A stretch of DNA of 32,544 bases from contig JBEDNI010000001.1 of the NCBI GenBank assembly GCA_041170685.1, positions 1-32,544 of the forward strand, written 5' to 3'. Shown here piece after piece: positions 6,220 to 26,293 of this stretch. The notes beneath the pieces were generated by a model that was not told the DNA's origin, made no database searches, and saw nothing but the letters and a program-made list of their open reading frames with translations. How positions within the stretch are numbered: position 1 is the stretch's first letter; each line of letters begins with the position of its first letter. The DNA is from Bacteroidota bacterium (GTDB lineage Bacteria; Bacteroidota; Bacteroidia; NS11-12g; UBA955). A program made the position numbers and the translations under genes.

Positions 6220-6952
6220 GATTGGATTGGGTTACAAAGTTCGCAATAATTGACCATAAAACATAAATCAGTAAAAAAGGTATGCCGGCATACACCCCAA
6301 AAATGGGCACACAAATCAGTCCAAGCATAGGAACTGCTATTTTCCAGAGCAGCAGCGGATCACCTTTCTTAAACTTTAATGACAGCATAGGCCATTCCGA
6401 AACCATGAGATAAGCCGCAATAATGGGAGCAAAACTGAAGAAATAGGGATGCTCAAAAACGGCTTTAAATACGCCATCGTTCGTGTTTTCAAATGCCAAG
6501 ATCAAAGATCCGAATGCGAGGCCTGTGATGGGTGTGGGAACACCCAGGAAGCCCGTTTTCTGGCGGGTATCTATGTTGAAATTTGCCAGTCGCCAGGCCC
6601 CGGCCAGCGGTAAGGCCAGCCATGCGTAACGCGAAGTGCAAAATCCATTGGGCATGCAATACCCTTTTTCAAGGGTGTAATGTAACATCACCAGACCGGG
6701 CAGGAGGGCAAATGTGATGAGATCGGCCAGTGAATCCAGCTGTTTGCCCAGTTCACCGTCAGCACCCAGCAGGCGTGCCACAAATCCATCTGCAAAATCA
6801 AGCAATGCGGCCAGCGCCATACAAATCAGTATACTGTTCATATCGCCCGCCATGAGTCTTTCTATTCCAATGGCCCCGCAGGAAAGATTTCCTAGGGTGA
6901 GTATATTGGGGAGGCCTTTCAGCGTTTCTTTCATGCTTAAATCAAAGGTCAA
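6212..6952 (-). CDS. pssA: CDP-diacylglycerol--serine O-phosphatidyltransferase (CDP-alcohol phosphatidyltransferase family)
   Basis: Multi-TM protein with the CDP-alcohol transferase motif [30 protein letters not shown] (DGx2ARx8Gx3Dx3D). The size (246 aa) is typical of Bacteroidota PssA. Confidence 0.8.
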
Positions 6953-8780: not shown

Positions 8781-10549
8781 GATGCATTATCCTTTCTTCT
8801 GTTTGCATTTTTGCGTATCAGATGCAAACCTGCGGTGAGGTTAAAAAAAATTTGATTGCCTTTGAATTTGCCTGCGGGGCCGCTAAAAGCACCATTAACA
8901 CGCCAGCGTTTATCGGAAAAGTCCCATCCATAGCCCCCTTCGGCGGCCAGATAGAACCTGTTGATGTTGATAGAACCTTTGGCTTTAAGGCAAAAAAGAA
9001 ATACGGGGTTGATGGCCGCTGCAGGCAGTGAATATCGCGAAATAAAAACGGTATCACTGAGGTTGGATGAGCTGTTTACAATATGCTGTTGGTAACTGAC
9101 ACCACTGCCCACGCTAACCCGAAAGAGTGCGTTATTAGGGGATAGGTCTGCAACGCCCGAAATGTAAGTTCCCCAGTATTGGTAAGCCGAACCGGGAATT
9201 CTTGCCCTTTGGAAAAATCCGGCTTCAAATTTGTTATCGGCATTGTCACAAACCGTCATATTCAAACCATAGTCCTGTGTGGGTTGGGTCTCAGCTAATC
9301 CGTAATCCTTGAGGAGTTCATTGAGCATGTTAAGATTTGGCAGGTGCAGCCCGGAGCTGATACCCATACTGAATATGGGTTCCTTCTTTTGTTGTTTGGG
9401 TATTGCCAGTGCCGGGGTTAACTGATTGTTGCCCATAGCCAACATAAAGTCAAATGGGATTTTTGGTATCAGACTTTTAGTGTTTGTCAGTATTGCCGCA
9501 TTGGGTGGAGCCCCTGACCGTATTTTTTTCAGGGCTGATTGTACTGATGACGGTTCGTCTTCAGCATCCCGTGGGTCATTGTAATAAATTCCTACGTTGA
9601 AAAACTGACCATACAGACTGCTGTCCTCACTCAGATTGGCGCAAACCGGCAAAAAATCAAACAAATCGCAGGCGCCTTGCAGTCTGTCATTCGCAGCATA
9701 ACATCTACCCACGATAGACACGGATTTTTCCTTAGGAAACTGTTGCAAATGCTTTTTTATGTTTTCAGAAACCTGCTGAACGCGAAATGGGTCTTCAAAC
9801 GAAGTGTTGATCCATTTTTCATAGTTTATGGCTGATTTTAGTCCCAGCATCAGCGCCTCAAGTCTAAACCACTCATCATCACCCAACCATTGCTGATAAA
9901 GACTTTGCAAGCTATCGAAATTGTTAACAAATGCCTTGTAGGTGTTTTTTACCGGAAATTGGTCCTGCGAATATTTTTTATCGATAAAACCACTCTTTAT
10001 CTGTTGGTAACGAATGGCTCCCTGAAGGGCTTCTATGGGTATTCTGAGTCTGTCGGGGGGCGTTTTGTCCTTAAATAGGTTAAAAACACCCAAAGCGGGA
10101 ACAAGGGTTCGGTTTTCGGCGTCAATTCCGACAACCTGTATTTTCATGCTGTCTGACACACCTTCATTCAGGGCGTTCAGTCTTTTGTAGAATAATAAGT
10201 CTTCCTGGCTCAATACCAGCGTTAAATCAGGGATAACAGCATAATCATTCCGATAGACAAACCGGTTTAGCCATTCTCCGCAAATGGGAGAAACGGGTGC
10301 CATAAAGTAGCGGTGTCCTGCTGTGTTTCTGGCGTAAGTAATCAGTTTTATACCAATAGTTCTGTTAATTTCCGGATAGGCCCTGTTGATACCAATCACC
10401 ATGATTTTTTGTGATTTCAGTGCAGAATCCAGGATGTTTAATCCCCGAAAATCCCGGGAGTCAGAAAGGTTCAGAAAATGTTGGTTTGTTTGCGCATGCA
10501 GAGTGGCAGTCAATATCGTCAACCATAAATATGCCCTTACTTTACGCAT
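8777..10549 (-). CDS. Secreted two-domain protein, paralog B of 6942-8780, with degenerate active-site motifs (putative pseudoenzyme) and a beta-barrel-like C-terminus
   Basis: Signal peptide MRKVRAYLWLTILTATLHA|Q. It is collinear with paralog A: FDSLQSLYQQWLG vs FDSLDAELKNWLG, LNRFVY vs ANRYVN, VGIDAE vs HGVDVE. The key positions are changed: GINR for GENH, MAPVS for LELGE, GRCY for GRCH. Its stop overlaps paralog A's start (ATGA at 8777-8780). Confidence 0.55.
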   Translation of the reverse strand: MRKVRAYLWLTILTATLHAQTNQHFLNLSDSRDFRGLNILDSALKSQKIMVIGINRAYPEINRTIGIKLITYARNTAGHRYFMAPVSPICGEWLNRFVYRNDYAVIPDLTLVLSQEDLLFYKRLNALNEGVSDSMKIQVVGIDAENRTLVPALGVFNLFKDKTPPDRLRIPIEALQGAIRYQQIKSGFIDKKYSQDQFPVKNTYKAFVNNFDSLQSLYQQWLGDDEWFRLEALMLGLKSAINYEKWINTSFEDPFRVQQVSENIKKHLQQFPKEKSVSIVGRCYAANDRLQGACDLFDFLPVCANLSEDSSLYGQFFNVGIYYNDPRDAEDEPSSVQSALKKIRSGAPPNAAILTNTKSLIPKIPFDFMLAMGNNQLTPALAIPKQQKKEPIFSMGISSGLHLPNLNMLNELLKDYGLAETQPTQDYGLNMTVCDNADNKFEAGFFQRARIPGSAYQYWGTYISGVADLSPNNALFRVSVGSGVSYQQHIVNSSSNLSDTVFISRYSLPAAAINPVFLFCLKAKGSININRFYLAAEGGYGWDFSDKRWRVNGAFSGPAGKFKGNQIFFNLTAGLHLIRKNANRRKDNAS

Positions 10550-11609: not shown

Positions 11610-12611
11610 ATGAAAAGGGTACTTTTTTCTTATTTTCTTTTTTCTGCGCTGTTATTGATGTTTAGCTTGCCGTCATGCACGGGAACAAGTGATATTCAGG
11701 ATGATACCACTGAAACCGGTCCTTCCGTTATTACCCGGAAATACCCTGAAATTTCTCAAGATTCTGCCTATGCTTTCATTCAAAAGCAGGTAGATTTTGG
11801 CTATCGGATACCCGGCACACAGGCCCACGCTCGTTGCGCAGACTGGCTGTATGCCAAACTTAAAATGTATTGTGATACCGTTTATTACCAGAAAGCCACC
11901 GCTGTTACCTGGGATAAAAAAACCATTCCGGTATATAACATTGTAGGGGTTTTTAATCCCAAAGCCGTTCAGCGCGGTATTTGGGCTTCGCACTGGGATT
12001 CTCGCCCTTGGGCAGATAACGACACATCGCGTAAAGCGGAGCCAATTGCAGCGGCAAATGATGGCGCCAGCGGGGTAGGAGTGCTGCTAGAACTCGCCCG
12101 CAACCTGAAGAAAAATCCGCCTCCTTACGGAATTGATATTGTGTTTTTTGATGCCGAGGACTACGGAAAAAGCGAATACGAAAACTCCTATTGTTTGGGG
12201 AGTCAGTACTGGGCCGAAAATCCCCATATTCCCAAGTATAAAGCACAATTTGGGGTATTGCTGGACATGGTGGGCGGTAAAGATGCCATATTTGGCCGCG
12301 AAGCCCTTAGCATGCAGCAGGCGGGCTGGGTGATGAACCACACTTGGGCTATTGCGGAAGAACTGGGTTTTGGCAGCACGTTTTCCAACATCACGGTTGC
12401 GCCTATCACTGATGATCACCACTATGTTTTTCAGGGTAGTCAGATTCCTATGATTGATGTAATTCAGCACGACCCGTCAAGAAATACGTTTGCGCATTAC
12501 TGGCATACCCATGCTGATGATATGAATGCGGTGAGCAAAGAAACGTTGTTGAGGGTGGGTAAAACCATGTCGGCGCTGATGTTTAATCCTCCCATTGAGA
12601 TTCAGCCATGA
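11610..12611 (+). CDS. M28-fold glutaminyl-peptide cyclotransferase (animal-type/type II QC), lipoprotein
   Basis: The lipobox-like signal is ...LLMFSLPS|C. QC-like motifs are ASHWDSRPWAD, NDGASGVGVLLELAR, FFDAEDYG, VLLDMVGGKDAIF (compare human QC LLDLIGA), DDHHYVF..G.P.IDVI and WHTHADD (compare WHTMDDN). Confidence 0.75.
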   Translation: MKRVLFSYFLFSALLLMFSLPSCTGTSDIQDDTTETGPSVITRKYPEISQDSAYAFIQKQVDFGYRIPGTQAHARCADWLYAKLKMYCDTVYYQKATAVTWDKKTIPVYNIVGVFNPKAVQRGIWASHWDSRPWADNDTSRKAEPIAAANDGASGVGVLLELARNLKKNPPPYGIDIVFFDAEDYGKSEYENSYCLGSQYWAENPHIPKYKAQFGVLLDMVGGKDAIFGREALSMQQAGWVMNHTWAIAEELGFGSTFSNITVAPITDDHHYVFQGSQIPMIDVIQHDPSRNTFAHYWHTHADDMNAVSKETLLRVGKTMSALMFNPPIEIQP

Positions 12612-13321
12612 CCGATATTCTGGCCTTTGGGGCCCATCCTGATGACGTGGAACTGGCAGCAGCCGGAACCCTCATTCATCACATTAAAATGGGGGCAAAA
12701 GTATCCATTGTGGATCTCACCGCAGGTGAAATGGGAACACGTGGTGACGCTGAAACCCGCGCTGCAGAAGCAGAGCTCAGCCGCAAAATTATGGGGGTTC
12801 AAAACCGGATGAATCTTCAGCTCCGGGATGCTTTTTTTGAAAACGATGAAGCATCATTGCTGAAGGTAGTGGCAGCCATACGCCACTTTTGTCCCCGGGT
12901 GATTCTAGCCAATGCAATAACTGACCGACACCCAGATCATGGCCGCGCAGCGGCGTTGGTAGAGCGGGCCTGTTTTTTATCGGGATTGCCTAAAGTTGTT
13001 ACCCAGTTTGAGGGTGCTGAACAGGCTGCCTGGCGTCCTGAGTCGGTGTATCATTACATCCAGGATCGATATATAAAACCGGATCTGGTGGTGGATATTA
13101 CCGATAGTTTTTCACAAAAGATGGAGGCCATCCATGCCTTTTCGTCTCAGTTCTATAAAGCGGGTGATTTGGGGCCTCAGACACCCATTAGTTCTGAAGC
13201 ATTTCTGCAGTTCATTGAAGCCCGTGCAAGGGAGTTTGGCCGAATTATTGGCGTGGAATTTGGAGAAGGATTCACTGTGGAAAGGCCGCTGGGCATAACC
13301 AATTTAATGAACATCCAATAA
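12608..13321 (+). CDS. bshB1: Bacillithiol biosynthesis deacetylase BshB1 (PIG-L/LmbE family)
   Basis: LAFGAHPDDVELAAAGTL, GEMGTRG and HPDHG are LmbE/BshB1 signatures. It overlaps the preceding gene in an ATGA arrangement. Confidence 0.85.
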   Translation: MTDILAFGAHPDDVELAAAGTLIHHIKMGAKVSIVDLTAGEMGTRGDAETRAAEAELSRKIMGVQNRMNLQLRDAFFENDEASLLKVVAAIRHFCPRVILANAITDRHPDHGRAAALVERACFLSGLPKVVTQFEGAEQAAWRPESVYHYIQDRYIKPDLVVDITDSFSQKMEAIHAFSSQFYKAGDLGPQTPISSEAFLQFIEARAREFGRIIGVEFGEGFTVERPLGITNLMNIQ

Positions 13322-13340: not shown

Positions 13341-14714
13341 ATGGTTTTAATATTGAAAAATGCAAAATCCATAACGCTGTTGGCTATCGGTCTGCTGTTT
13401 TGTGCGCTGCACGCTCAAAAAGTTAGTATCGACCAGCTAATGACCCTAAAGCCCGTTGGCATAGGTACCCAAAAAATAATACCTTACCCCGGTATGATTT
13501 ACCTCCCAATGCCTTTTTCCTCTGCGGAGTTCAAAGATGTATCGCAGTTGGCTGATATTCCATCACCGGACCGAATTCATTCCGTAGCGCTCGTTTATAC
13601 GCGTTTTAGGGAGGTGGATACTTTCAACCAGCCCAAGTTGAATTTTTACCGTTTTCAAAACCTAAAAAAAGTATACCCTGTTGTGTTTGAGGATACATCC
13701 ATTCAATGGAAAATCATGGAACAGCGGCAGGCCACCGAAAAGGAAGACGCCATGAAATGCTTTCATGGATTTATCATATTGCTTAAAAATGAACCGCCTA
13801 AAATATTGATTGAAAAGGAATTGTCAATGATGAAATCTGTTATTGACAGCTATCATGACAGCCTGACATGGATTCCGGAAAAAATTGACTGGAAGGTAAA
13901 GCGGGTGAAAGAAGAAACCGGCTATTATTTGCCTGTGAATAAGAATAAGCGCAAGCAAGGCATTCGATTTAGCAGCAGCTTTTTGGGGATGAGGGAAAAA
14001 GAGTATCGTTCCAGGAAAGACAGCAGCATTCGCAAAAAATCCGGTGGGTACTTCGCAAGAAAGGGACATTTTGATACAACACTCTTTAAAAATGTTCATG
14101 AATACAACTTTCTCATTTCTCGCCGTTGGAGTAAAAAAATGGCTGTCGTGGCCGATGTTACGGGCAGTATGAGCCCATATAGCACCCAGGTAATGCTTTG
14201 GCTGAAAAATAGACCTGAGATATTACGGGATGGCAGATTTGTGTTTTTCAATGATGGCGATGCCAAACCCGATATGCTAAAAAGAATTGGCAGCACCGGA
14301 GGAATTCATTTTGCGGCCTCCACCGATTATGATTCAGTCTATATGGCCATGAACCGCGCCATGCGTGCAGGTACCGGCGGTGATATTCCGGAAAACAACA
14401 TTGAGGCAGTTTTGGAAACTCTAAAACACTGGCCCGATACAGATACCGTATTGCTAATTGCTGATAATGAAGCTTCTGTAAAAGATATAAATTTACTTAA
14501 GAATGTGAAAAAACCCGTAAGTGTGATGCTTTGTGGTGCTACCGAAAAAATTCACAAAGACTACATTGAAATTGCCAGGGTAACTGGAGGTCGTTTGTTT
14601 GTGCTTAGCACTGAACTGGCAGAAATGAAGAAATGGCAAACCGGCACGGAAGTAAAAATACGGGGGAAAAAATACGAATATAAAAACGGTGAACTGGTCA
14701 GGAAGAGAACCTGA
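13341..14714 (+). CDS. Secreted hypothetical protein with a C-terminal vWA-like domain
   Basis: Signal peptide ...LLFCALHA|Q. A central Lys/Arg-rich segment (KNKRKQGIRFSS...RSRKDSSIRKKSGG) is followed by a MIDAS-like AVVADVTGSMS motif and an alpha/beta-like pattern (VLLIADNEA, PVSVMLCG). Confidence 0.55.
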   Translation: MVLILKNAKSITLLAIGLLFCALHAQKVSIDQLMTLKPVGIGTQKIIPYPGMIYLPMPFSSAEFKDVSQLADIPSPDRIHSVALVYTRFREVDTFNQPKLNFYRFQNLKKVYPVVFEDTSIQWKIMEQRQATEKEDAMKCFHGFIILLKNEPPKILIEKELSMMKSVIDSYHDSLTWIPEKIDWKVKRVKEETGYYLPVNKNKRKQGIRFSSSFLGMREKEYRSRKDSSIRKKSGGYFARKGHFDTTLFKNVHEYNFLISRRWSKKMAVVADVTGSMSPYSTQVMLWLKNRPEILRDGRFVFFNDGDAKPDMLKRIGSTGGIHFAASTDYDSVYMAMNRAMRAGTGGDIPENNIEAVLETLKHWPDTDTVLLIADNEASVKDINLLKNVKKPVSVMLCGATEKIHKDYIEIARVTGGRLFVLSTELAEMKKWQTGTEVKIRGKKYEYKNGELVRKRT

Positions 14715-15357
14715 TGGTTTTGATATCTCCCTCAATCACAAGTCGCCCCAGGGTTTTGGCTTTAACTTCATCTATCGTTACATCCTCAGCAATTTCCCTA
14801 AGTTCAAAACCACGTTCGGTAATGTCAAAAACCCCCAGTTCGGTAACTACTTTTTTCACACAATGTAAACCGGTAATAGGCAATGTGCAGGCAGGAAGTA
14901 ATTTGCTTTCGCCGGCTTTATTGGTATGTTGCATGGCCACAATGATATTCTTGGCCGAAGCCACCAGATCCATGGCCCCACCCATACCTTTCACCATCTT
15001 ACCGGGTATTTTCCAGTTGGCAATATCTCCTGTATCGCTCACTTCCATGGCACCCAGCACGGTTAAATCGACCTTTCCGGCCCTGATCATACCGAACGAT
15101 GTAGCCCCGTCAAAGAAGCTGGCTCCTTTGGCTGTAGTAATGGTTTGTTTGCCTGCATTGATTAAATCCGGATTTTCCTCGCCTTCAAAGGGGAAGGGGC
15201 CCATGCCCAGCAAGCCGTTTTCACTTTGTAACACCACCTCTACTCCCTCCGGAATATAATTGGCCACCAGCGTAGGAATGCCTATACCCAGGTTTACGTA
15301 GTATCCGTCTTGCAGTTCCTGCGCTATGCGCTTTGCGATTCCGTACTTGTCCAGCAT
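14698..15357 (-). CDS. scoB: 3-oxoacid CoA-transferase, subunit B
   Basis: The N-terminus IAKRIAQELQDGYYVNLGIGIPTLVANY and the catalytic-Glu motif LQSENGLLGMGP are present; 219 aa. Confidence 0.9.
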   Translation of the reverse strand: MLDKYGIAKRIAQELQDGYYVNLGIGIPTLVANYIPEGVEVVLQSENGLLGMGPFPFEGEENPDLINAGKQTITTAKGASFFDGATSFGMIRAGKVDLTVLGAMEVSDTGDIANWKIPGKMVKGMGGAMDLVASAKNIIVAMQHTNKAGESKLLPACTLPITGLHCVKKVVTELGVFDITERGFELREIAEDVTIDEVKAKTLGRLVIEGDIKTIRFSS

Positions 15358-15404: not shown

Positions 15405-17327
15405 TCACAACCTTTCCAGGATTTCTTTGGCTTTGCGATTATTGGGCTGTATTCTCAACGCTTCCTTCAGCTGGAATCTTGCCTGAGAATTATCGCCAAG
15501 GGAAAGGTAGATTTCTGCCAGGTACAGTCTTGCATTCTCGTTATCAGGGAAAAGCGATACCATTTTCTTCAAATGCCCCAGTGCCTTTCCGCTATTCCCG
15601 TTCAGCCATTCAGCCACCCCTAAATTTAGTAACGTGAGTTCGTGTTTGCCTTGCTGTTTCAGGGTTTTTGAAAGCACTTCCACGGCCTCAGTATAACGTT
15701 TGGTTCGTATGAAAGCATTTCCTAATTCAGCTGCAAAATCAGCTTGCAGTGGCATTTTTTCCACTGCTATCCGTAACCATTCCACAGCGTTTTCGGTCTT
15801 GTCTGTTTTATCAAACGCCTTGCCAATGCGGTATGCTGTCCATGCCGAAATACCTTCTTTATTCATTTTGTCAGACAAAGCGACCATCTTTTCCCATTGG
15901 CCATGGGCATAGTAATAGTGTATTTCCTGTTCCTGTGTGCCTTTGTTAAGTAATGTCCGTGCATTATTCAGATACACCGGATTGGCATCAAATTTTTCAA
16001 ACCATGTGAGGTAGGCCTGAAGTTGCATGCCCGGTTTAGGTGTCGGCTGATTTACCGCATACAAACCCACCGGGTTGCCAAGAGCCAAAGGTTTTGTTGT
16101 ACCCATCGGTTTGCGTATGTAATGATCGTGTACCGTGACATGAGGGATATCCGCGGTGCCACTTTTGGGCATATGACATCCCACACAGTTGTTTTTTAGC
16201 TTTAGCAATTCCGCTTTGGGGGCTTTGCAATGCTTGCTGGATGCATTTCCACCATTGCTGTGGCAATTGTTGCAGGCCTTATTAAATAGGTCAGTATTGG
16301 TTTTTCTCACGCTCACATGGGGATTGTGACAGGTAATGCAGGTAAGGTTTAGTTTGTTTGAGGCCTTGTTTGAAACCTGGAAACACTGGCTCATTTGTAG
16401 TCTTTCAGCGTGACCGGCCATGTAGAACGCTTTCCCTCCTTCATGCATGGGCATGTAAATTTCAAATACGCTATCTAGATGCATGCCCGGCCTGAAATCG
16501 GTAAATTTCTTTCCGGGTTTTAATACATTGTTTCCCTGAAGATGGCAACGCTGGCAGATATCTACCTGCAGTTTCCAAGGCAACCGGGCGGGATTCACAA
16601 TGGTTCGGTCAGCGGTTGTGGTAACATCCACAATTTTGCCCATGCGTTTTTCTGCGACATGCAATTCTCCCGGACCATGACATCGCTCACAATCAATGCC
16701 GGCAGGCATTCTGGTGAATTTATTGATGCTGCCGTCTTCCACTTTGGGCATTCCATTGTGACAGCTCATACATTCCACATCAATTTTGCGCGAAAAACCT
16801 GTATTGGTGGTTTCATAGCCCGGGGGTAAGTCCCATTTACCGGACTGGGTATAGAAGGTGAGTGGTGCCTGATACCAGTATTCTCCGTCTTGCCAAAAAT
16901 GGCTGTTAGTATGGTGCCCGCTGCCCACAATGTGGGTGATTTGCTCAGTTCGGCTGTGTGTGGTGTCGCCATTTTTTAACCGGTATTCCTTGATGAAATA
17001 CTTACCATCTGCACTAAATGGCAGGTAATACATGTCTTTTTTGGAATCGTAAACGGATTTCACATTATTCCATACGGCTTTTGTTTTGGTAGATGTTGCT
17101 ATTCCAAAACTACTTCCCATTCCGGTTTCGATGAAAGTGTGGTAGTGGTCAGCATGGCATTGTTTGCAGGTTTCAATTCCCACATAGTCCACAGTATCTT
17201 GTAAATTCAAGAAAAATGTCGTATCTTTATCTTGTATATCGGCCCCACCGCATTTGCTAAATGTGAGGGTGATGGTAAATCCACTCAGGCCAAGCCAGAT
17301 AAGGGGAATCAATTTTCTGCCGACCAC
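15405..17327 (-). CDS. Heptaheme c-type cytochrome fused to C-terminal TPR repeats, probably a lipoprotein
   Basis: GTG start with signal ...FTITLTFSK|C. There are seven CxxCH motifs: CKQCH, CMSCH, CERCH, CQRCH, CITCH, CNNCH and CVGCH (residues 54-385, nt 16173-17168). Residues ~465-640 form TPR-like helical repeats (...AVEWLRIAVEKMP...YTEAVEVLSKTLKQ...ALGHLKKMVSLFPDNENARLYLAEIYLSLGDNSQA). Confidence 0.85.
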   Translation of the reverse strand: MVGRKLIPLIWLGLSGFTITLTFSKCGGADIQDKDTTFFLNLQDTVDYVGIETCKQCHADHYHTFIETGMGSSFGIATSTKTKAVWNNVKSVYDSKKDMYYLPFSADGKYFIKEYRLKNGDTTHSRTEQITHIVGSGHHTNSHFWQDGEYWYQAPLTFYTQSGKWDLPPGYETTNTGFSRKIDVECMSCHNGMPKVEDGSINKFTRMPAGIDCERCHGPGELHVAEKRMGKIVDVTTTADRTIVNPARLPWKLQVDICQRCHLQGNNVLKPGKKFTDFRPGMHLDSVFEIYMPMHEGGKAFYMAGHAERLQMSQCFQVSNKASNKLNLTCITCHNPHVSVRKTNTDLFNKACNNCHSNGGNASSKHCKAPKAELLKLKNNCVGCHMPKSGTADIPHVTVHDHYIRKPMGTTKPLALGNPVGLYAVNQPTPKPGMQLQAYLTWFEKFDANPVYLNNARTLLNKGTQEQEIHYYYAHGQWEKMVALSDKMNKEGISAWTAYRIGKAFDKTDKTENAVEWLRIAVEKMPLQADFAAELGNAFIRTKRYTEAVEVLSKTLKQQGKHELTLLNLGVAEWLNGNSGKALGHLKKMVSLFPDNENARLYLAEIYLSLGDNSQARFQLKEALRIQPNNRKAKEILERL

Positions 17328-17342
17328 TTTTTCAGGATAAAA

Positions 17343-18104
17343 TTAACGGGGAATACCGGGTGGTTTGGTTTTGAGGGAAATCCATTTTTCAGGTTTCACC
17401 TGACCATCAGGCTGCAATCGGAAATCGGGCAATAGCACCTCTTTCTTTGCATTGATGTAGGGAATCAGACTGCAAAAAAATTGAGGTGCGTTAATATCAT
17501 TGCGATTTTTTGGGTTCCACAATCCCGTAAAAATAACTGAGGGTTCTTGCAAAAGCACATTTTTGGGTATCGAAACAATGGTATTGCTAATGGGGTGATA
17601 CAGAAACATGATTTTGAAAACCCCTTCGGCGGTGCCTGCAAATTTCCCGGTAGTATCTTCCGTAAGGTTGTAATTTCCTTCCACAAAGTGAATTTCCCAT
17701 CCCTGTTCTACCATGGAATCCATGTGTTGCATGGCCTGTGGTGTAGTATAAAAGGTATCGACACATTCCTCCATTTGGATCCTGACAATGCTGATAATCT
17801 TGGGTTTTATCAGGAATCGATTTTCGATACCATAGTGCCAGCTTTTGCCTTGCAGCAAATGGTGTTGGATATTACCACCGGTTTTGGCCCCGGAAATAAT
17901 ATATTTAACCATACCGCACTGCGTATCCGCGCCGAAACCTCCATAGAAGGTATCGGCAAGCCGCAAATAAATATCTTTGAAATTGGCAGCTCCTACTACG
18001 CCGGGATGATTCTTTTCCTTTTTGTAATATATGGAATCATGGCTATGCTGAGCCCATAGCCATAATGGAATAAAAAAAAGTAATATGGCAAAGGATCTTG
18101 ACAT
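17343..18104 (-). CDS. Secreted hypothetical protein with no recognisable domain
   Basis: I prefer the ATG at 18104 over the track's TTG at 18107. Signal peptide MSRSFAILLFFIPLWLWA|Q. Its start overlaps the rhodanese stop (TGATG), and it ends 15 nt before the cytochrome start. Confidence 0.7.
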   Translation of the reverse strand: MSRSFAILLFFIPLWLWAQHSHDSIYYKKEKNHPGVVGAANFKDIYLRLADTFYGGFGADTQCGMVKYIISGAKTGGNIQHHLLQGKSWHYGIENRFLIKPKIISIVRIQMEECVDTFYTTPQAMQHMDSMVEQGWEIHFVEGNYNLTEDTTGKFAGTAEGVFKIMFLYHPISNTIVSIPKNVLLQEPSVIFTGLWNPKNRNDINAPQFFCSLIPYINAKKEVLLPDFRLQPDGQVKPEKWISLKTKPPGIPR

Positions 18105-18409
18105 CAAGCCCCAAATTGTCTTTGCCAGTCTAGCATGCCCCCCAAAAGATTGCGCACTTTAGTAAAACCCTGAGATTCAAGAAATGCTTTGGCGGTAGCA
18201 CTGCGAGCACCACTGCGGCAATGCACCACAATTTCTTCAGGTTTATGGTCTTCCAGATCATCGGTTTTGCCGGGTAATTCGGCCAAGGGTATCAGCGTTG
18301 CACCAATGTTGAATTCTTCGTATTCCCAGGTCTCTCGTACATCGATTATCATGGGTGCAGTGCCATTATCAATTCTGGTTTTTAATTCTATTGCTGTAAT
18401 ATCTTCCAT
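18104..18409 (-). CDS. Single-domain rhodanese-like sulfurtransferase, cytoplasmic (no signal peptide)
   Basis: 101 aa with the active-site loop VVHCRSGARSATA. The overall pattern (IDVRE..E...G.I.GA..IP) is that of the rhodanese homology domain. Confidence 0.9.
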   Translation of the reverse strand: MEDITAIELKTRIDNGTAPMIIDVRETWEYEEFNIGATLIPLAELPGKTDDLEDHKPEEIVVHCRSGARSATAKAFLESQGFTKVRNLLGGMLDWQRQFGA

Positions 18410-18410
18410 A

Positions 18411-20330
18411 TCAAAGGTTTTTTATCAGTTTCCGGCTGCTGGTTCTTCCATAACTATCCGTGCATAGAACAACATACATCCCTTCTTTCAACTGCTCTAT
18501 GTTGATTTCTGCATTTGGATGGTTTATTTCCATTACTTTTTGTCCGTTTAAAGCCAGTATGACAATTTTCGTCAAATCATTCAATCCCTCAATTCTCACA
18601 GATCTTTCTGCAGGGTTGGGCACGATGGTGAAATCGGGTTTAGAAATGGTCTTTACAGACATTCTGTGGTCCATGGCAGAGCCCATTAGGGGTCTTAGCA
18701 TAGGCACACCTTTCACTGATGCATCTACGCTTTCCCACTGACCCAGGAGGTTGTAAAACAGATTGGGATTTTTTACGTTTTGTCGCTGGTATCTGTAATT
18801 ATTGTCGTAGCCCACATTAAGCACAAATTTCTGGAATTGAATCCAGCCAATGTAGTAACTGCCTTTATCCAGCAGCAACGAGGTGTCGAAGTAGAAATAG
18901 TGAAAACCGTTGTGTGTGTCTTTGTATGCAGGAAGCTCAAAAGGCGCTTCATAGATAAGCTCATCTTGATTGTCTGCAGCACCTATGGCTGATAATTTTC
19001 GCCACACACGAAACTTGAATTTTCGGTTGCTGACATCTTCTACGCTTTGGTTAAACATGACCGAAAGTCCGCGGAAGGTGTCTTTTTTTAACAAGTCGAA
19101 TTTCATGGCAAACTGTCCTTTGATGTCGGGCAAAAACTCATAATTCAGACCAAAACCTCCTTCAGCTGTTCCATCATCCCAGGCGTACCATGGAGAAAAC
19201 TCCTGACGGCTGAGGAAAAGATTGTTATTGCCTGCCGCATTGTAATTATCGGGTGTGATATCATCGCTTTGGGGGGCAATTTTATAGGTGATTTTAAGGT
19301 ATGGATTTTCGCCGGATAGGGTATCCATTTTTACCTGTCCAAAGTTTTCACCGTCTACACCGGGAGCAATGTTTTTACTGCTCAAGTTGAACGGCCTGAA
19401 CAAAACCAGCGAATCATATCGGTTGCGTATTTCCAGCTGAAAGCGGGTTTGCACGGTTACACTGTTATTAAGATTACGGACAGTTACACTGTGGCCGGGC
19501 AGGGTTTGATCCGTGAAGTTGTCCATAAAATGCCGATAGGGCATGGTAAAGTAATCCTTCAACAGGGAAGGAGATGCGAATTGAATAGTCACATCGCGGA
19601 TAGCACTATCTGCCATGCTTCTGTTTCGGTCCATACGCACATAGTCAATATGCCAGTGATTAAGGTTGCCGGTTGCCTTGGTGTAGTTTACCCAACGAAA
19701 CTGAAATGTTCCATGAAGAAATTCAGTCTGATAGGCCGGCACTATCACCTGTTTAAATGCAGACATGTTCTGTCCGGTTTGATTCCATACACGCTTCCAT
19801 TCACCGGTTTTGGTTTTGAAAAAAAGTATGAGCGAATCTTCAGCTTCAGGAATGTCACCCAGTCCGGCTGTCTGATAGAAGAAACTGAGGAATACGCTGT
19901 CTGCCGGGGTGTAATTCTTGGTGGTAACCGTGCCTGTTTTGTAAAACTGCAGGTTTATCGGCTGACTTGTAAGACTGTCGGCATAAACGTATTCGTTTTT
20001 ATTGAGCAGGTTTTTCCATGGTTTTCCTGCCGGGTTGAGGTGATCGAAGGTAGCTACATTGTAATCCGGCTGATTTATGGGAAAGTTGTTGTTTACCCAA
20101 ACCTGATTATCTGCCCACCGGCTGTAGGACGGATAACCTTTATCCACCGTAAAATTGTCGAAAAAAGGCAAGTCCAGTGTATCTGTAATTTTACTGTAAT
20201 GCAAATCGGCAGACGGCATGGATGTTTGTCTTAACGCAAGATGTAATGGAGATAACTGAATACCTTGTCCTTGCAACATTATATTGCAGTTAAACAATAG
20301 CATCATGGCTGGGACAATGTGTTTTTTCAT
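18411..20330 (-). CDS. T9SS type A sorting-domain-containing secreted protein
   Basis: I prefer the start at ATG 20330 (MKKHIVPAMMLLFNCNIMLQG), because the upstream ATG at 20381 lies inside a predicted -7 promoter box. The C-terminal 73 aa (nt 18414-18632), FTIVPNPAERSVRIEGL...GMYVVLCTDSYGRTSSRKLIKNL, form a type A CTD. The N-terminal LPFFDNFT...W pattern resembles choice-of-anchor/MAM-like cargo. Confidence 0.8.
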   Translation of the reverse strand: MKKHIVPAMMLLFNCNIMLQGQGIQLSPLHLALRQTSMPSADLHYSKITDTLDLPFFDNFTVDKGYPSYSRWADNQVWVNNNFPINQPDYNVATFDHLNPAGKPWKNLLNKNEYVYADSLTSQPINLQFYKTGTVTTKNYTPADSVFLSFFYQTAGLGDIPEAEDSLILFFKTKTGEWKRVWNQTGQNMSAFKQVIVPAYQTEFLHGTFQFRWVNYTKATGNLNHWHIDYVRMDRNRSMADSAIRDVTIQFASPSLLKDYFTMPYRHFMDNFTDQTLPGHSVTVRNLNNSVTVQTRFQLEIRNRYDSLVLFRPFNLSSKNIAPGVDGENFGQVKMDTLSGENPYLKITYKIAPQSDDITPDNYNAAGNNNLFLSRQEFSPWYAWDDGTAEGGFGLNYEFLPDIKGQFAMKFDLLKKDTFRGLSVMFNQSVEDVSNRKFKFRVWRKLSAIGAADNQDELIYEAPFELPAYKDTHNGFHYFYFDTSLLLDKGSYYIGWIQFQKFVLNVGYDNNYRYQRQNVKNPNLFYNLLGQWESVDASVKGVPMLRPLMGSAMDHRMSVKTISKPDFTIVPNPAERSVRIEGLNDLTKIVILALNGQKVMEINHPNAEINIEQLKEGMYVVLCTDSYGRTSSRKLIKNL

Positions 20331-20378
20331 CAATTTATCACCCAAATTAACAGGTATTATAGTCCTGTTATTGTAATG

Positions 20379-20386
20379 CAAAGGTA
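20379..20386 (-). promoter_or_regulatory. Putative -7 box (TACCTTTG) upstream of the T9SS-cargo/rhodanese/cytochrome operon
   Basis: Exact TAnnTTTG match on the minus strand, in the 60-nt gap between the PASTA gene stop (20391) and ATG 20330. I saw no clear -33 TTG. Confidence 0.3.
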
Positions 20387-20390
20387 AAAA

Positions 20391-21026
20391 TCAAAGGTCT
20401 CTTTTCCGCTTTTTTCTTTTGGGCGGATCTTCTTCGGTAGCAGGCACTTCTGCGTCATCGGAATCCACGGCAGTGCTGTCGTTGTTTTCAGCTGCGTCAG
20501 ATTGGTTTTTCACTACCACCAAATCAATTCGTGTGCCCTTTGTAATCATTTTGCCGGCCGGTACTTCCATGCCGTTAATCTGTTGTTTTGTAACCAGGTT
20601 ATTGCCAATTTCATCATACACATATTCAATATTACCCAGTTCTAAACCATTGTTTTTGATGAGTACTTTGGCCAGTGTCAGACTTTGATCAACCAGCATG
20701 GGCATTTTTACTTTGGGCTTGTCTAGCGCATTCACCACCAGATAAATAATGCGGTTGGGCTTTACATCACTGCCGGCCGAAGGATCTTGTTCAGTTACTG
20801 CGTCTCTTTTATAGTTTTCAAGGTACACAGAATCGATTATTTCAAAACGCAACCCCTCGTCATCCAGTTTTTCCGTAGCTTCCTGTAGGTTCATGCCCAC
20901 CAGGCTGGGCACCTTTACGGCTACATTATGGTTGGTAAACCAGTTCATCCATAAAAAAAGCAGAAGGATGAAAACACCAGTTGCTACGATTCCCAATCCG
21001 ATATTGAAAAACAAGTTCTTATTCAT
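20391..21026 (-). CDS. PASTA domain-containing membrane protein
   Basis: It has an N-terminal TM helix (IGLGIVATGVFILLLFLW) and two PASTA-like repeats (VPSLVGMNLQEATEKLDDEGL...; MPMLVDQSLTLAKVLIKNNGL...). The tail is charged (PPKRKKRKRDL). It overlaps the 3' end of ddl by 8 nt. Confidence 0.8.
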   Translation of the reverse strand: MNKNLFFNIGLGIVATGVFILLLFLWMNWFTNHNVAVKVPSLVGMNLQEATEKLDDEGLRFEIIDSVYLENYKRDAVTEQDPSAGSDVKPNRIIYLVVNALDKPKVKMPMLVDQSLTLAKVLIKNNGLELGNIEYVYDEIGNNLVTKQQINGMEVPAGKMITKGTRIDLVVVKNQSDAAENNDSTAVDSDDAEVPATEEDPPKRKKRKRDL

Positions 21027-23718
21027 GTTTCGATGTTAACGAATCCTTGCCGTATTTCAATATGTTTCTGATAAAATCAAAAGGTTTGTATCCATTGATT
21101 GCAGCCTGGTGGTAGATACAAGTTGCCGGGGTCATTCCGGGCAGGCTGTTTACTTCAATAATCCAGGTTTCTATGTTGCCGTCAGCCATGATTTTGACAA
21201 AAGCATCAATCCGGCAGTAGCCGGTAACCTGCAAACAGCGTGCAACTGCCTCCAATGTTTTTCTTACTTCTTGGCTAATTCGCGCCTGTTCAACTGCATC
21301 CCTGCTAAATCTCGATGGGGTTAGATTCTGCCCTTGCCCGGCAAGAAACTTTTCTTCCAGACTGAGAATTTCACTTTCTGCCAATGCTTCGCTGGGTTCA
21401 AAAACCTCATAACGAATGCTGCCATCTTCCATGCTGTGGGTGAGCATTCCACCTGTAATTTCCAGGAATCTGGCGGCGTTGCCTTTTTCTATGAACTTTT
21501 CAATGAGTAATTCCTGCTTCATTGGGAATTCTTCATTGGGGGTTAATCCCAATTTTTGCCTGATTTCGCTATCGTTGTATCCTGAATCGCGAAAAATTCC
21601 GGCAATGAAATGATGAAGTTCATCTGCTGTTTTTACCTTTCTTACGGCGGCACTGCATCCGTCATCGGCAGGCTTCGCAATCAGGGGCAGGCCAAAGCGA
21701 TTTATTATGTTTTGTTCTTGTTCAGTAGCATTGGCAAGCCATTCCTGTTTCGTCAGCATTTGGTGATCGGCTACCAGAAATCCATTTTCACGCAGTTTTT
21801 GGTTGGTGATGAATTTATTGATGGTAATGGCCGCACTATGTTGTCTGCTACCGTTGTAAAACAAGCCGTATTTTTCAAGTTCCTGCTGCAACGTTCCGTC
21901 TTCGCCGGGTCTTCCATGCAGAGCAATAAATACACCCGAAACCATTTCAGCCAGTTCCGCAAATGAAATTTCCTTTGGCACTGTAATCATACCGCTGGGA
22001 TTATAACGTTGCGTTATATGCTCAGCTTCAGCTGCAATGCTGTTCAGCACAGGGTTATGGTCGAAATGCAGTACCTTTTCTCTGATATCGTCTGCATTGT
22101 CTTTTAACATGATATTAAGCGGAAGCTGAAATAACCTTATGTTTTCGGCACTGCCCGTAAGAAACACAGGTATGGGCTCATATTCAGCACTGCTGCTGAG
22201 TTTTTCGTAAATATTACGACCACTTTCCATGCTGATGTGACGTTCATAGCTGTAACCACCCATGATAACGGCAATTTTCTGTTGTGTAGTTTGCCCTGAA
22301 GCCAACGCATCTATTTTGCTGTCTAATGATTTCAGCGTGTTATTAAGCCATTGTGCCCTAGGCTGGGTTTCAATGCGCTCTGCCACAGAATTGCGTATGA
22401 TGAAGGTTAAAAACCGTGCAGGATTTAGCCCGATTTCGGCAGCCTGATGAAAAAAGAAACTGCTGGGCATCATCCCGCTGGTGGTGTTTGGGTCGTTCAG
22501 AAAAACCTCGTTGTCATCTGAAACGAATCCATCAATACGGGCATACACATTAAAACCAAAAAAGTCATACAAAGCAGTACATGCTGTTCTAATCTCTTCC
22601 AGCAATTCAGCCGATCCGGGCATGGGCGTAATCTTGTGGCTCAACCCCGGCAGGTATTTGCTTCTGTAGTCAAAAAAGTCTGTTTTTTTTCTTATTTCTG
22701 TAGGCGGCAGGGCAATAGGATTGCCGCTGTCATCTCGAACAACAATGCAACTGAATTCTCGGCCCTGAATAAATTCTTCAAATACAATTTCTGTTTCGGC
22801 ATCAGGCGACTCCAGCAAGGCAGTGCTGTCTTGCTGTGAAAGCAATACGTTCAGTCGATTCATCAAATCATCGGGCATAAAACACCATTCTCCATTCAGC
22901 AGCAATGGTAGCCCCAGTCCGCTGCGTATATCGGTAATTTCCTTGATGCGTTCAACCTGTTCTTCTTCCGATAAGGTTGACCATTCTTCATGATTCAACT
23001 GTATTTGGAAGAAAGCCAGATTTACAGCCTTTTCAAAAGTGGAGAAATCGGTATTTTTAAGAACACTCACACCCAGTGAACTGCCTTGATTGGCGGGTTT
23101 TACAACAAAATGTTCATTGAATTCGCGATTGTAAAAGAAAAAAAGGTTTCCTTTCTCTTGGTCATCAGCCTGAACCCAGGCATCGCGTTTTAGGGTCTGA
23201 TAATGGTTTACATATAACCCCGCCCTTTCCTGAAAATCTTTTTGTCGGGCTTTGTTCATGCCCAGTGCAGATGCGAAAATCCCGGAACCTGAATAGGGGA
23301 TATTGTGCCATTCGAGCAGTCCCTGAATGGTTCCGTCTTCGCCCAATGTGCCATGTAAGGCCAAAAATGCAAAATCAAAATGGTTTTTTAAATCATTAGC
23401 AGTGATGGGTGTACCCAAAGATGCCAGCATTTGCTGCTGTGTTTGTTCATCAGGATTGAGGCTTTCTGCGTAAACCTGAAAACCATTGGGCAAATCGGGT
23501 AGAAAAGATGCAGGCGGATAAAAATCACGTATACTTCCTTTGTAAACAAATTCCCAGTTCAGAATTACAAAATTGCCAAATGAATCCACAAAAATGGGAA
23601 CGGCCTCAAACAGGTTTTTATCCAGATTATCATACACGGTTCGGCCACCGGCAAAAGAAACTTCCCTCTCGCGTGAAGCGCCACCAAAGAAAATTCCAAC
23701 ACGGATTTTGGATGTCAT
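21019..23718 (-). CDS. ddl: D-alanine--D-alanine ligase family protein with two tandem complete Ddl (ATP-grasp) modules
   Basis: Module 1 (aa 1-~455) carries IRVGIFFGGASREREVS, FLALHGTLGEDGTIQGLLE, VVKPANQGSSLGVS, EEFIQGREF, FFDYRSKY and ARIDGF...NDPNTTSGM. Module 2 (aa ~481-899) carries KIAVIMGGYSYERHIS, FIALHGRPGEDGTLQQELE, IAKPADDGCSAAV, IEKFIEKG, LEEKF and CRIDAF...IIEVNSLPGMT. Confidence 0.85.
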   Translation of the reverse strand: MTSKIRVGIFFGGASREREVSFAGGRTVYDNLDKNLFEAVPIFVDSFGNFVILNWEFVYKGSIRDFYPPASFLPDLPNGFQVYAESLNPDEQTQQQMLASLGTPITANDLKNHFDFAFLALHGTLGEDGTIQGLLEWHNIPYSGSGIFASALGMNKARQKDFQERAGLYVNHYQTLKRDAWVQADDQEKGNLFFFYNREFNEHFVVKPANQGSSLGVSVLKNTDFSTFEKAVNLAFFQIQLNHEEWSTLSEEEQVERIKEITDIRSGLGLPLLLNGEWCFMPDDLMNRLNVLLSQQDSTALLESPDAETEIVFEEFIQGREFSCIVVRDDSGNPIALPPTEIRKKTDFFDYRSKYLPGLSHKITPMPGSAELLEEIRTACTALYDFFGFNVYARIDGFVSDDNEVFLNDPNTTSGMMPSSFFFHQAAEIGLNPARFLTFIIRNSVAERIETQPRAQWLNNTLKSLDSKIDALASGQTTQQKIAVIMGGYSYERHISMESGRNIYEKLSSSAEYEPIPVFLTGSAENIRLFQLPLNIMLKDNADDIREKVLHFDHNPVLNSIAAEAEHITQRYNPSGMITVPKEISFAELAEMVSGVFIALHGRPGEDGTLQQELEKYGLFYNGSRQHSAAITINKFITNQKLRENGFLVADHQMLTKQEWLANATEQEQNIINRFGLPLIAKPADDGCSAAVRKVKTADELHHFIAGIFRDSGYNDSEIRQKLGLTPNEEFPMKQELLIEKFIEKGNAARFLEITGGMLTHSMEDGSIRYEVFEPSEALAESEILSLEEKFLAGQGQNLTPSRFSRDAVEQARISQEVRKTLEAVARCLQVTGYCRIDAFVKIMADGNIETWIIEVNSLPGMTPATCIYHQAAINGYKPFDFIRNILKYGKDSLTSKHE

Positions 23719-23723
23719 TGTTG

Positions 23724-23731
23724 CAAATTTA
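23724..23731 (-). promoter_or_regulatory. Putative -7 box (TAAATTTG) upstream of ddl
   Basis: Exact TAnnTTTG match on the minus strand, ending 5 nt before ATG 23718. Confidence 0.3.
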
Positions 23732-25230: not shown

Positions 25231-26293
25231 AGTTAAACCTGTAATTGGAATAACCCAGGGCGATCCCAACGGTGTTGGGCTGGAACTCATCATTCGCACC
25301 TTTGCTGACGAGAATATTTATAAATACTGCACGCCTGTGGTATATGCTTCACCCAAAAGCTTTGTGTTTTACAAAAAGTTACTGAATTTACAGGAACCCA
25401 TGTATCACCTGGTGCAAAGTGCCTCTGAAGCTAAAGAAGGCAGGCTAAATCTTGTGGTGAGCAGCGATACAAGCATGGAAATTACACCCGGACAAGCATC
25501 TGATGCCGCCGGCAAGGAAGCTTTGTTGGCTTTGGATAAAGTACTTTTAGATGTTGCTGCAGGGCATTTACAGGCGATAGTCACCGCGCCCCTTGATAAA
25601 AATACTGTGGCTGCCAATCTGCCCGGATTTAGCGGACATACAGGATACATAGCCGATAAATTAGGCGTAGATCACTATGCCATGTTGCTGGTGAGTGAAA
25701 AGCTGCGCGTGGGGCTAGTTACCGAACATTTACCGGTGAGTCAAATAGCGCAAGCCATAACCATTGATAAAATATTTGCAAAGCTCAACATATTGCACAC
25801 CTCCCTGCGTGAAGACTTTGCATGTACCAAGCCTCGTATTGCAGTGCTTGGGTTGAATCCCCATGCCGGTGATGGAGGATTATTGGGTAAGGAAGAAATT
25901 GAAATTATCAAACCCGCCATCGCTAAAGTGTTTGCTGAGGGTAAACTGGTTTATGGGCCTTATTCAGCCGATAGTTTCTTTGGCAGCGGTGCCTACAAGA
26001 CCTTCGATGGAATATTGGCCATGTACCACGACCAAGGGCTGATTCCATTCAAAACATTCGCCTTTTACGACGGCGTAAACTATACGGCAGGTCTTAATGT
26101 GGTGCGCACCAGCCCTGACCATGGCACTGCTTACGACCTGGCCGGAAAGGGCACCTGTGAAACATTGTCTTTCAGGAACGCTATTTATGAAGCCATTGGA
26201 ATTGTCCGCAACAGACTGCAGCACCATCAGGATTATGAAAATCCGCTGCCCTACGCAGAACTGAGAAGAGAAAAGTTTCGTATTGATTTTTAA
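25223..26293 (+). CDS. pdxA: 4-hydroxythreonine-4-phosphate dehydrogenase
   Basis: GITQGDPNGVG, GHTGY, LNPHAGDGG and TSPDHGTA are PdxA motifs. It overlaps pepA by 8 nt. Confidence 0.93.
   Translation: MDKVKPVIGITQGDPNGVGLELIIRTFADENIYKYCTPVVYASPKSFVFYKKLLNLQEPMYHLVQSASEAKEGRLNLVVSSDTSMEITPGQASDAAGKEALLALDKVLLDVAAGHLQAIVTAPLDKNTVAANLPGFSGHTGYIADKLGVDHYAMLLVSEKLRVGLVTEHLPVSQIAQAITIDKIFAKLNILHTSLREDFACTKPRIAVLGLNPHAGDGGLLGKEEIEIIKPAIAKVFAEGKLVYGPYSADSFFGSGAYKTFDGILAMYHDQGLIPFKTFAFYDGVNYTAGLNVVRTSPDHGTAYDLAGKGTCETLSFRNAIYEAIGIVRNRLQHHQDYENPLPYAELRREKFRIDF

Follow-up and report, generated by a model that had tools for sequence, protein, structure and literature searches.

The window analysed here, a stretch of 32,544 nucleotides (nt) of DNA from a bacterium of the phylum Bacteroidota, contains between positions 15405 and 20386 a compact series of minus-strand genes that ends in a multihaem cytochrome c fused to tetratricopeptide repeats (TPR). 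The four genes of this segment encode, in reading order, a cargo protein of the type IX secretion system (T9SS), a rhodanese, a small secreted protein and the cytochrome; by ascending coordinate they are (lengths in amino acids, aa):

15405-17327, minus strand: heptahaem cytochrome/TPR gene, 640 aa, GTG start
17343-18104, minus strand: secreted accessory gene, 253 aa, ATG start
18104-18409, minus strand: rhodanese gene, 101 aa, HCRSGARS loop
18411-20330, minus strand: T9SS type A cargo gene, 639 aa from its ATG; the maximal open reading frame (ORF) reaches 20381

These genes had been described before in a reading made from the letters alone (below, the sequence-only reading), and all of them are present in the sequence with the sizes, motifs and junctions given there. 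Read along the minus strand, the cargo and rhodanese genes meet at TGA-t-ATG, a junction that stands as described, although it occupies 18413..18407 and the span reported for it, 18409-18413, is two bases short at one end. The rhodanese gene overlaps the 253-aa gene by 1 nt (TGATG, 18106..18102), and 15 nt, between 17343 and the GTG at 17327, separate the latter from the cytochrome gene. Profile searches against Pfam and NCBIfam agree with the domain calls, namely a T9SS sorting domain, a rhodanese with CRSGARS, a 253-aa protein without family and a TPR protein with seven CxxCH motifs. Scans of the window for Rfam families and tRNAs gave no matches, and scans for sigma-70 promoters and terminators gave background levels only.

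Conservation and extent of the block

The gene neighbourhood was surveyed by calling ORFs in 80 loci (designated L plus a number) from species-representative genomes and comparing them with the window proteins; 59 loci contained enough sequence to be informative upstream of the cytochrome and 68 were used for downstream counts. Of the 59 loci, 24 have a co-oriented cargo homologue upstream of the cytochrome and 21 have a rhodanese gene directly before the cytochrome. The complete order, which begins with a gene for a protein with PASTA domains and continues with cargo, rhodanese and cytochrome, recurs in about 40% of the informative loci with gaps of 0-20 nt. The PASTA gene precedes the cargo gene in 21 loci, as well as in L091-L093, and the gap between the two is zero or negative in 8 of the 21; median gaps are about 4 nt from cargo to rhodanese and about 12 nt from rhodanese to cytochrome.

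The block loci are distributed over at least three separate groups of the cytochrome neighbour-joining tree, and their surroundings differ. Upstream, the outer flank may be a same-strand D-Ala-D-Ala ligase gene (ddl), an opposite-strand single-domain ddl or unrelated genes; downstream, at least five different neighbours were seen, among them a coenzyme A (CoA) transferase gene, mltG, a ferredoxin gene with an NlpC/P60 gene, and a sigma-54 activator gene. Three cargo homologues of 39-45% identity, picked without regard to the cytochrome, all lie (3/3) in blocks of the order PASTA-cargo-rhodanese-(~260-aa ORF)-cytochrome, one of which, in L093, is bordered by unrelated genes on both sides. The block also tolerates interruption and loss: in L086 an opposite-strand DUF4199 gene is inserted between cargo and rhodanese, but the rhodanese gene and the two that follow it, accessory and cytochrome, have kept their 4-nt overlaps, and in L021 and L027 the rhodanese is missing and cargo and cytochrome remain adjacent. 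The sequence-only reading had proposed an operon and named an unconserved neighbourhood as the observation that would speak against it; instead, the three genes are adjacent and co-oriented in 21-24 of the 59 loci, in several clades and with differing flanks. The block is conserved and operon-like, and it extends one gene further upstream than had been claimed. The linkage of the four genes is thus upheld, whereas their number is not: PASTA, and often ddl, belong to the unit, and a CoA-transferase subunit B gene follows it in this lineage. The segment forms the core of a conserved and probably co-transcribed envelope block, [ddl]-PASTA-T9SS cargo-rhodanese-(β-barrel accessory)-cytochrome/TPR, the edges of which show the following features:

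21019-23718, minus strand: tandem D-Ala-D-Ala ligase fusion gene, 899 aa, Pfam architecture that of the orthologue in L081 and L091
20391-21026, minus strand: gene for a membrane-anchored protein with two PASTA domains (PF03793, 2e-21), the upstream block member
20379-20386, minus strand: TAccTTTG, a match to the Bacteroidota -7 consensus, directly after the PASTA stop, four bases on
14698-15357, minus strand: CoA-transferase subunit B homologue (PF01144, 2e-46), 47 nt downstream of the cytochrome gene

The ddl fusion joins two complete units, with the domain order N, C, N, C, and its gene shares 8 nt with the PASTA gene. It is preserved in L081, L086, L091, L092 and many loci of the Genome Taxonomy Database (GTDB), whereas in other clades the opposite strand carries a single-domain ddl. 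The motif TAAATTTG stands before the fusion gene, at 23724-23731, and it is possible that this gene is the first of the transcription unit. At the other end, the CoA-transferase B gene follows the cytochrome in L003-L007, L041, L081-83, L086, L088 and L091, no terminator-like site was found on the minus strand between the two genes, and the transferase gene is probably the last of the unit in this lineage only. It stands alone, with no adjacent subunit A gene, and its 3' end overlaps by 17 nt a convergent 457-aa gene (13341-14714, plus strand) that has a weak VWA match only; the transferase gene as called in L081 is longer and overlaps the stop codon of the cytochrome. Further downstream, two overlapping genes for proteins of 612 and 590 aa (6942-8780 and 8777-10549, both minus strand) belong to no Pfam family and hold the same position in L081 and L082.

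The sequence-only reading had placed the four genes behind an exact TAnnTTTG box. The match is exact, but of 21 related loci only 6 have a box at this junction, the PASTA gene lies upstream of it, and the motif was rejected as a general operon-start marker because it is not conserved across relatives of the block. Within the window it is rarer than chance, with 22 matches against 33 expected. A stretch of 23 nt that includes TAccTTTG (the box and 15 flanking bases) is kept exactly in L081 and L083, with differing bases around it, in a comparison in which the cytochrome is 79% identical. Since conservation is confined to the lineage and the motif is not enriched, we read the box as a plausible lineage-specific internal promoter within a longer array from ddl to CoA-transferase B, and not as proof of an operon start. 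Other copies lie at 1368, 3681 and 11595 (plus strand) and at 23724, 30437 and 31764 (minus strand), and at least 7 of the 22 precede a gene start by 5-50 nt, as a Bacteroidota -7 promoter element should.

The cytochrome and the exported proteins of the block

The 640-aa protein is composed of a haem region with seven CxxCH motifs (residues ~40-410) and a TPR domain (~430-640). TPR families match it at 1e-12 to 2e-15 in Pfam and NCBIfam, and the multihaem matches in the same databases (Cytochrome_C7, c3_2, C554, MtrC II/IV) are weak. Exactly seven CxxCH motifs are present in 198 of 200 aligned relatives and CxxCK in none of the 200. In the same alignment, seven additional histidines (139, 143, 223, 306, 337, 396 and 402) and the methionines Met70, Met303 and Met386 are conserved at 94% or more, the unpaired Cys315 and Cys367 are conserved, and Cys26, which closes the N-terminal hydrophobic stretch, is found in 90% of the sequences. 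The conservation of Cys26 suggests lipidation, and the protein is predicted to be, probably, a lipoprotein.

A protein search with the cytochrome gave more than 5,000 matches. Among the best 120 clusters, which were inspected, nearly all are full-length, with 45-94% identity, and they bear the names "tetratricopeptide repeat protein" or "multiheme c-type cytochrome" or misnomers driven by the TPR domain (CcmH/NrfG, PilF, TadD); a scan of one genome per GTDB species confirmed at least 579 family matches. The titles among the matches listed are nearly all of Bacteroidota type (Chitinophagales, Saprospiraceae, Flavobacteriales, Sphingobacteriales and one of Rhodothermales), and the sources of the matches listed are mostly metagenome-assembled genomes (MAGs) from lakes, rivers, wastewater or the sea. 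The family has no dedicated Pfam or NCBIfam model and no close relative solved in the PDB, and full-text searches found no literature on this type of TPR-multihaem protein in Bacteroidota. It is a large, uncharacterised, Bacteroidota-wide family, in line with the earlier view that such fusions are poorly characterised, as no well-characterised family among the Pfam, NCBIfam and PDB profiles fits the protein. One Rhodothermales MAG locus, L065, the only one of the 80 from outside the class Bacteroidia, has two cytochrome-TPR copies within 8 kb, which is unique among these loci.

Structural relatives of the haem region were sought by a profile search of the cytochrome domain alone against all PDB sequences; the full-length alignment had been tried as a query, but TPR matches swamped the results and the search was repeated with that domain only. 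The best match is OcwA (6I5B, 3e-13; the identity of this entry was checked against the literature), followed by MtrA (6R2Q chain A, 3e-9), OmhA (6QVM, 1.5e-7), NrfA (1.4e-5), cytochrome c554 (0.012) and MccA (0.016). The alignment with OcwA is colinear, haem 1 corresponding to OcwA haem 1 and haems 2-7 to its successive motifs, including the CExCHGPGxxH signature. Judged by its CxxCH motifs and this profile similarity, the cytochrome is a distant member of the OcwA/NrfA/c554/MccA superfamily. An AlphaFold2 (AF2) model, with an overall predicted local distance difference test score (pLDDT) of 74, is confident in a β-sheet domain between haems 1 and 2 (residues ~73-166) and in the TPR domain; the unaligned stretch of OcwA, residues 50-130, is similar in length to this β-sheet domain. 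After haem 7 the protein continues into the TPR domain of about 13 helices and not into the three-helix bundle of the superfamily. A Foldseek comparison of the whole model with the PDB returned TPR proteins only and was uninformative for the haem domain.

The cargo protein consists of a signal peptide, with n- and h-regions readable from the sequence, about 560 aa of unrecognised conserved domains and a C-terminal sorting domain (CTD) at 570-636, which scores above the cut-offs for type A T9SS substrates (Por_Secre_tail, PF18962, 1e-7 and 32.4 bits, cut-off 27; TIGR04183, 30.6 bits, cut-off 23). The family is widespread and full-length at 39-94% identity, and the sorting domain is matched by all 21 aligned members. 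Outside the CTD no significant PDB or Pfam match was found; weak matches to Reelin subrepeat B appear in 8 of the 21. The window contains a further type A CTD protein and two CHU_C (type B) T9SS substrates (30-1355, plus; 1380-3275, plus; 26290-30414, minus), of which one of type B is 1374 aa long and has an orthologue in L081 with DUF7948 and SBBP repeats.

The 253-aa ORF matches no Pfam or NCBIfam family, in keeping with its description as a secreted protein without recognisable motifs; the label "orphan" has to be withdrawn, since the protein belongs to a rare family that has 15 representatives among 1.8 billion proteins in an exhaustive profile search. The 11 close clusters all have lengths of about 253 aa, and five distant members all lie directly after a rhodanese gene and directly before the cytochrome-TPR gene wherever the contig continues. 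A hidden Markov model (HMM) of the family, applied to all 93 fetched loci, found matches in 12, among them L001 and L092 (the latter reached independently, via a cargo homologue), and all of these are between rhodanese and cytochrome, where the gene often overlaps its neighbours by 1-4 nt. As for co-occurrence with the two flanking genes, suggested earlier as a check, every member found occupies this position. The ORF is a real gene. Its AF2 model (pLDDT 86) is an antiparallel β-barrel behind a signal peptide, and nine positions, including His90 and a PD.R motif, are invariant in the family. No PDB fold match below 1e-3 was obtained for the model; GID4, nitrobindin, nitrophorin and avidin were weak candidates for its fold and were set aside, leaving a generic calycin-like barrel, and hhalign detected no remote homology to other small proteins recurrent next to the cytochrome (u186, u204, c28, c37, c31). 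The protein is best seen as a lineage-specific accessory that serves the cytochrome in the periplasm; binding of a ligand or haem is speculation.

Possible functions of the block

We hold with moderate confidence that the block is a conserved envelope module in which a membrane-tethered, periplasmic heptahaem protein hands electrons to one of two acceptors, a small oxidised substrate or a partner bound to the TPR domain. The cytochrome would sit in the periplasm, tethered to the membrane; electrons from the respiratory chain would enter it and travel along the seven-haem chain, ending either on a small oxidised substrate at an OcwA-like haem (haem 2 or 5) or on a partner protein held by the repeats. 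In OcwA, haems 2 and 5 are open and high-spin, and the enzyme is able to reduce nitrite and hydroxylamine (PMC6703420). The secreted 253-aa β-barrel might serve in this lineage as a dedicated periplasmic partner or ligand carrier, and the rhodanese would be a cytoplasmic passenger, at most an indirect helper. That one transcription unit mixes cytoplasmic, periplasmic and T9SS-exported components, which had been called unusual, is in our judgement not unusual in itself.

Several observations weigh against this interpretation. The haem regions of the AF2 model have a pLDDT of 45-65 and the model is without haems, so that axial ligands or an open site are not readable from it, and the seven near-invariant additional histidines would be enough for seven bis-His haems, which makes pure electron transfer without catalysis conceivable. 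The position before Cys26 is frequently K, Q or T, an atypical lipobox, for which reason lipoprotein status is only probable. The annotated genes near the cytochrome, in the window and in related loci, include none for a quinol dehydrogenase or another electron donor. About 60% of the cytochrome family members have no cargo and rhodanese genes nearby, so these are not obligatory partners, and the synteny in the clade of the window extends well past the four genes to plain housekeeping genes such as ddl and the CoA-transferase gene.

The last two points equally suit the explanation that the neighbours are incidental, the cytochrome being a core housekeeping gene in a slowly rearranging envelope and housekeeping stretch, in which compact genomes account for the spacing and the products do not cooperate. 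The flanking genes are indeed ordinary (ddl, dapF, mltG, a phosphoglucomutase-family gene, tyrS, GNAT and CoA-transferase genes), and source genomes are small, as in L044 with a chromosome of 2.8 Mb. However, the block persists where both flanks have changed (L093, L018/L024, L009/L023, L044), at protein identities of only 39-45%, the rare 253-aa family occurs nowhere else, and the insertion in L086 has left the 4-nt overlaps of the genes behind it intact. We consider incidental neighbourhood unlikely.

The pairing of the cytochrome with a rhodanese had led the sequence-only reading to suggest a sulfur module, for example for thiosulfate or polysulfide. The rhodanese itself is well supported (PF00581, 4e-16 and 59.7 bits, cut-off 22.2) and, by its fold and the six-residue loop CRxGxR[ST] (here CRSGARS), is a single-domain protein of the GlpE/PspE type. 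The closest NCBIfam models, MoeZ/MoeB C-terminal and PspE/GlpE-type, all match below their cut-offs, and no equivalog-level model in that database is reached. In every locus for which its length is listed the protein has 99-102 aa, and it has no signal peptide; its earlier designation as cytoplasmic agrees with this prediction, and a cytoplasmic rhodanese cannot meet an exported cytochrome directly. In two Saprospiraceae loci the cytochrome is preceded by a gene of 98 aa, which was considered as a divergent rhodanese and rejected, being a ParE toxin. Elsewhere in the window, a PIG-L family deacetylase gene with a BshB-like N-terminal signature (12608-13321, plus strand), followed by the 457-aa gene, is a possible gene of low-molecular-weight thiol biosynthesis; it lies three genes from the rhodanese-cytochrome block on the opposite strand.

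In a sulfur module, the rhodanese would supply or accept sulfane sulfur and the cytochrome, periplasmic or on the cell surface, would oxidise or reduce thiosulfate, polysulfide, sulfite or tetrathionate. The tight spacing of the rhodanese as immediate upstream neighbour in 21 of the 59 loci would fit such a role, the cytochrome superfamily includes the sulfite reductase MccA (PMC6703420), and the Geobacter ExtHIJKL cluster (PMC6148476) sets a precedent in which one cluster encodes both a rhodanese and a multihaem cytochrome, although the rhodanese there is an exported lipoprotein. The annotated genes of the window and related loci include none of the Sox, Psr/Phs, TsdA, Mcc, Otr or Dsr type, nor any other sulfur-metabolism gene, and hence no partner subunits of a dissimilatory sulfur system (Sox, Psr/Phs, TsdA, MccABCD, Otr). 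The match to MccA is at 0.016 only, with neither a CxxCK site nor an MccA-style accessory gene; the rhodanese is absent from L021 and L027 despite the adjacency of cargo and cytochrome, and in other clades the gene before the cytochrome is instead that of a GNAT acetyltransferase or belongs to other housekeeping functions. A sulfur module is thus quite improbable, and in the block we recognise no sulfur pathway.

Outside the block, the cytochrome is found chiefly in one other context, with the order HtrA(-)/SurA_N-like/DapF/unknown/GNAT, then the cytochrome, then MltG (YceG) and a phosphoglucomutase-family gene. MltG, an endolytic murein transglycosylase, is encoded directly downstream of the cytochrome in 29 of the 68 loci (L009, L013, L020 and 26 more; median gap about 5 nt), whether GNAT, rhodanese or other genes lie upstream, and six of these loci have the cargo-rhodanese block; it is the most widespread adjacency of the family. 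In a ferredoxin clade, genes for a 4Fe-4S ferredoxin and an SH3+NlpC/P60 endopeptidase come after the cytochrome (L012:1966-3032, L018:9941-10989, L024:9967-11017). These recurrent peptidoglycan neighbours (ddl, PASTA, DapF, NlpC/P60, MltG) could be a housekeeping backbone or could indicate a link to the envelope. If the latter, the cytochrome could be a redox scaffold, a TPR lipoprotein that serves as an adaptor for peptidoglycan enzymes in the manner of NlpI, LpoA and CpoB, to which the haem domain adds a periplasmic redox response. The MltG adjacency, the ddl and PASTA genes upstream, dapF upstream in the GNAT context and the ferredoxin and NlpC/P60 genes of L012, L018 and L024 are compatible with this scheme, yet the argument is guilt by association and nothing more, the only models that the TPR domain matches are generic TPR ones, none at the family cut-off, and mltG is not adjacent in the window; we regard the scheme as improbable. 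To our knowledge, no haem-regulated peptidoglycan adaptor has been described. A more specific version, in which the TPR domain docks MltG, the NlpC/P60 protein or the PASTA protein and the haems couple their activity, or the display at the surface of the T9SS protein encoded alongside, to the redox state of the periplasm, is a long shot that, if true, would represent a previously undescribed kind of control of wall remodelling.

Every domain in the block is of an already known kind; what is new is that four genes are conserved together and that a β-barrel family is specific to one slot among them. Multihaem cytochromes have been studied mainly in metal reducers and in specialists of the nitrogen and sulfur cycles. 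Here, hundreds of species of Bacteroidota, a phylum that dominates the turnover of polymers in water and soil, have kept a seven-haem protein that resembles OcwA and carries a docking domain; many of them belong to small-genome lake and marine lineages. Together with the fixed position of its gene in a block that also encodes a surface-secreted protein, and next to cell-wall genes, this points to a routine periplasmic redox function in the phylum. The block offers a defined set of four or five genes for study, with the rare β-barrel accessory as a candidate partner.

Comparison with known systems

In its gene content the block recalls ExtHIJKL of Geobacter sulfurreducens, a cluster in which the gene for the rhodanese-family lipoprotein ExtH is accompanied by genes for two periplasmic products, one a small protein and the other a multihaem cytochrome (PMC6148476). 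The two differ as follows: ExtH is an exported lipoprotein whereas the window rhodanese has no signal peptide, the 21-strand porin ExtI has no counterpart in the window, and no homology is detectable beyond the rhodanese fold and the CxxCH motifs.

The resemblance to periplasmic decahaem cytochromes of the MtrA/DmsE type rests on the MtrA structure 6R2Q and on NCBIfam decahaem models (DmsE and GSU2203, 2e-9 to 2e-13), all of which score far below their cut-offs. Those proteins have ten haems, in contrast to the seven haems and TPR tail of the window protein. Unlike in the MtrCAB conduits, neither an outer-membrane β-barrel partner nor an outer-surface cytochrome is encoded in the block: its genes and those of the flanks were assigned and none encodes a porin-like barrel, the 253-aa barrel being small and predicted to be soluble.

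The cytochrome resembles the TPR lipoprotein adaptors of the envelope (NlpI, LpoA, CpoB/YbgF) and the TPR factors of cytochrome maturation CcmI/CcmH/NrfG in that it is exported, is probably anchored by a lipid and ends in a TPR domain; its gene, moreover, has many peptidoglycan genes around it. The match to TPR_CcmH_CycH is weak (19 bits, cut-off 42), and the window TPR domain reaches no model specific to any of these families. We know of none among them that has a haem domain.

The best solved relative is OcwA, the nonahaem cell-surface terminal reductase of Thermincola potens, with which the window protein has in common the order of the haems and CxxCHGPGxxH. The β-sheet domain predicted after haem 1 is a further likeness, as OcwA and MccA share an extra β-sheet domain (PMC6703420). 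The two differ in that the window protein has seven haems and not nine and carries a conserved N-terminal cysteine, and open haems 2 and 5 are known for OcwA alone; they also differ in their hosts, here diderm, apparently mostly aerobic Bacteroidota and there a Gram-positive metal reducer. The family looks like a seven-haem relative of OcwA in which a TPR domain of ~200 aa has taken the place of the last haems and the C-terminal three-helix bundle.

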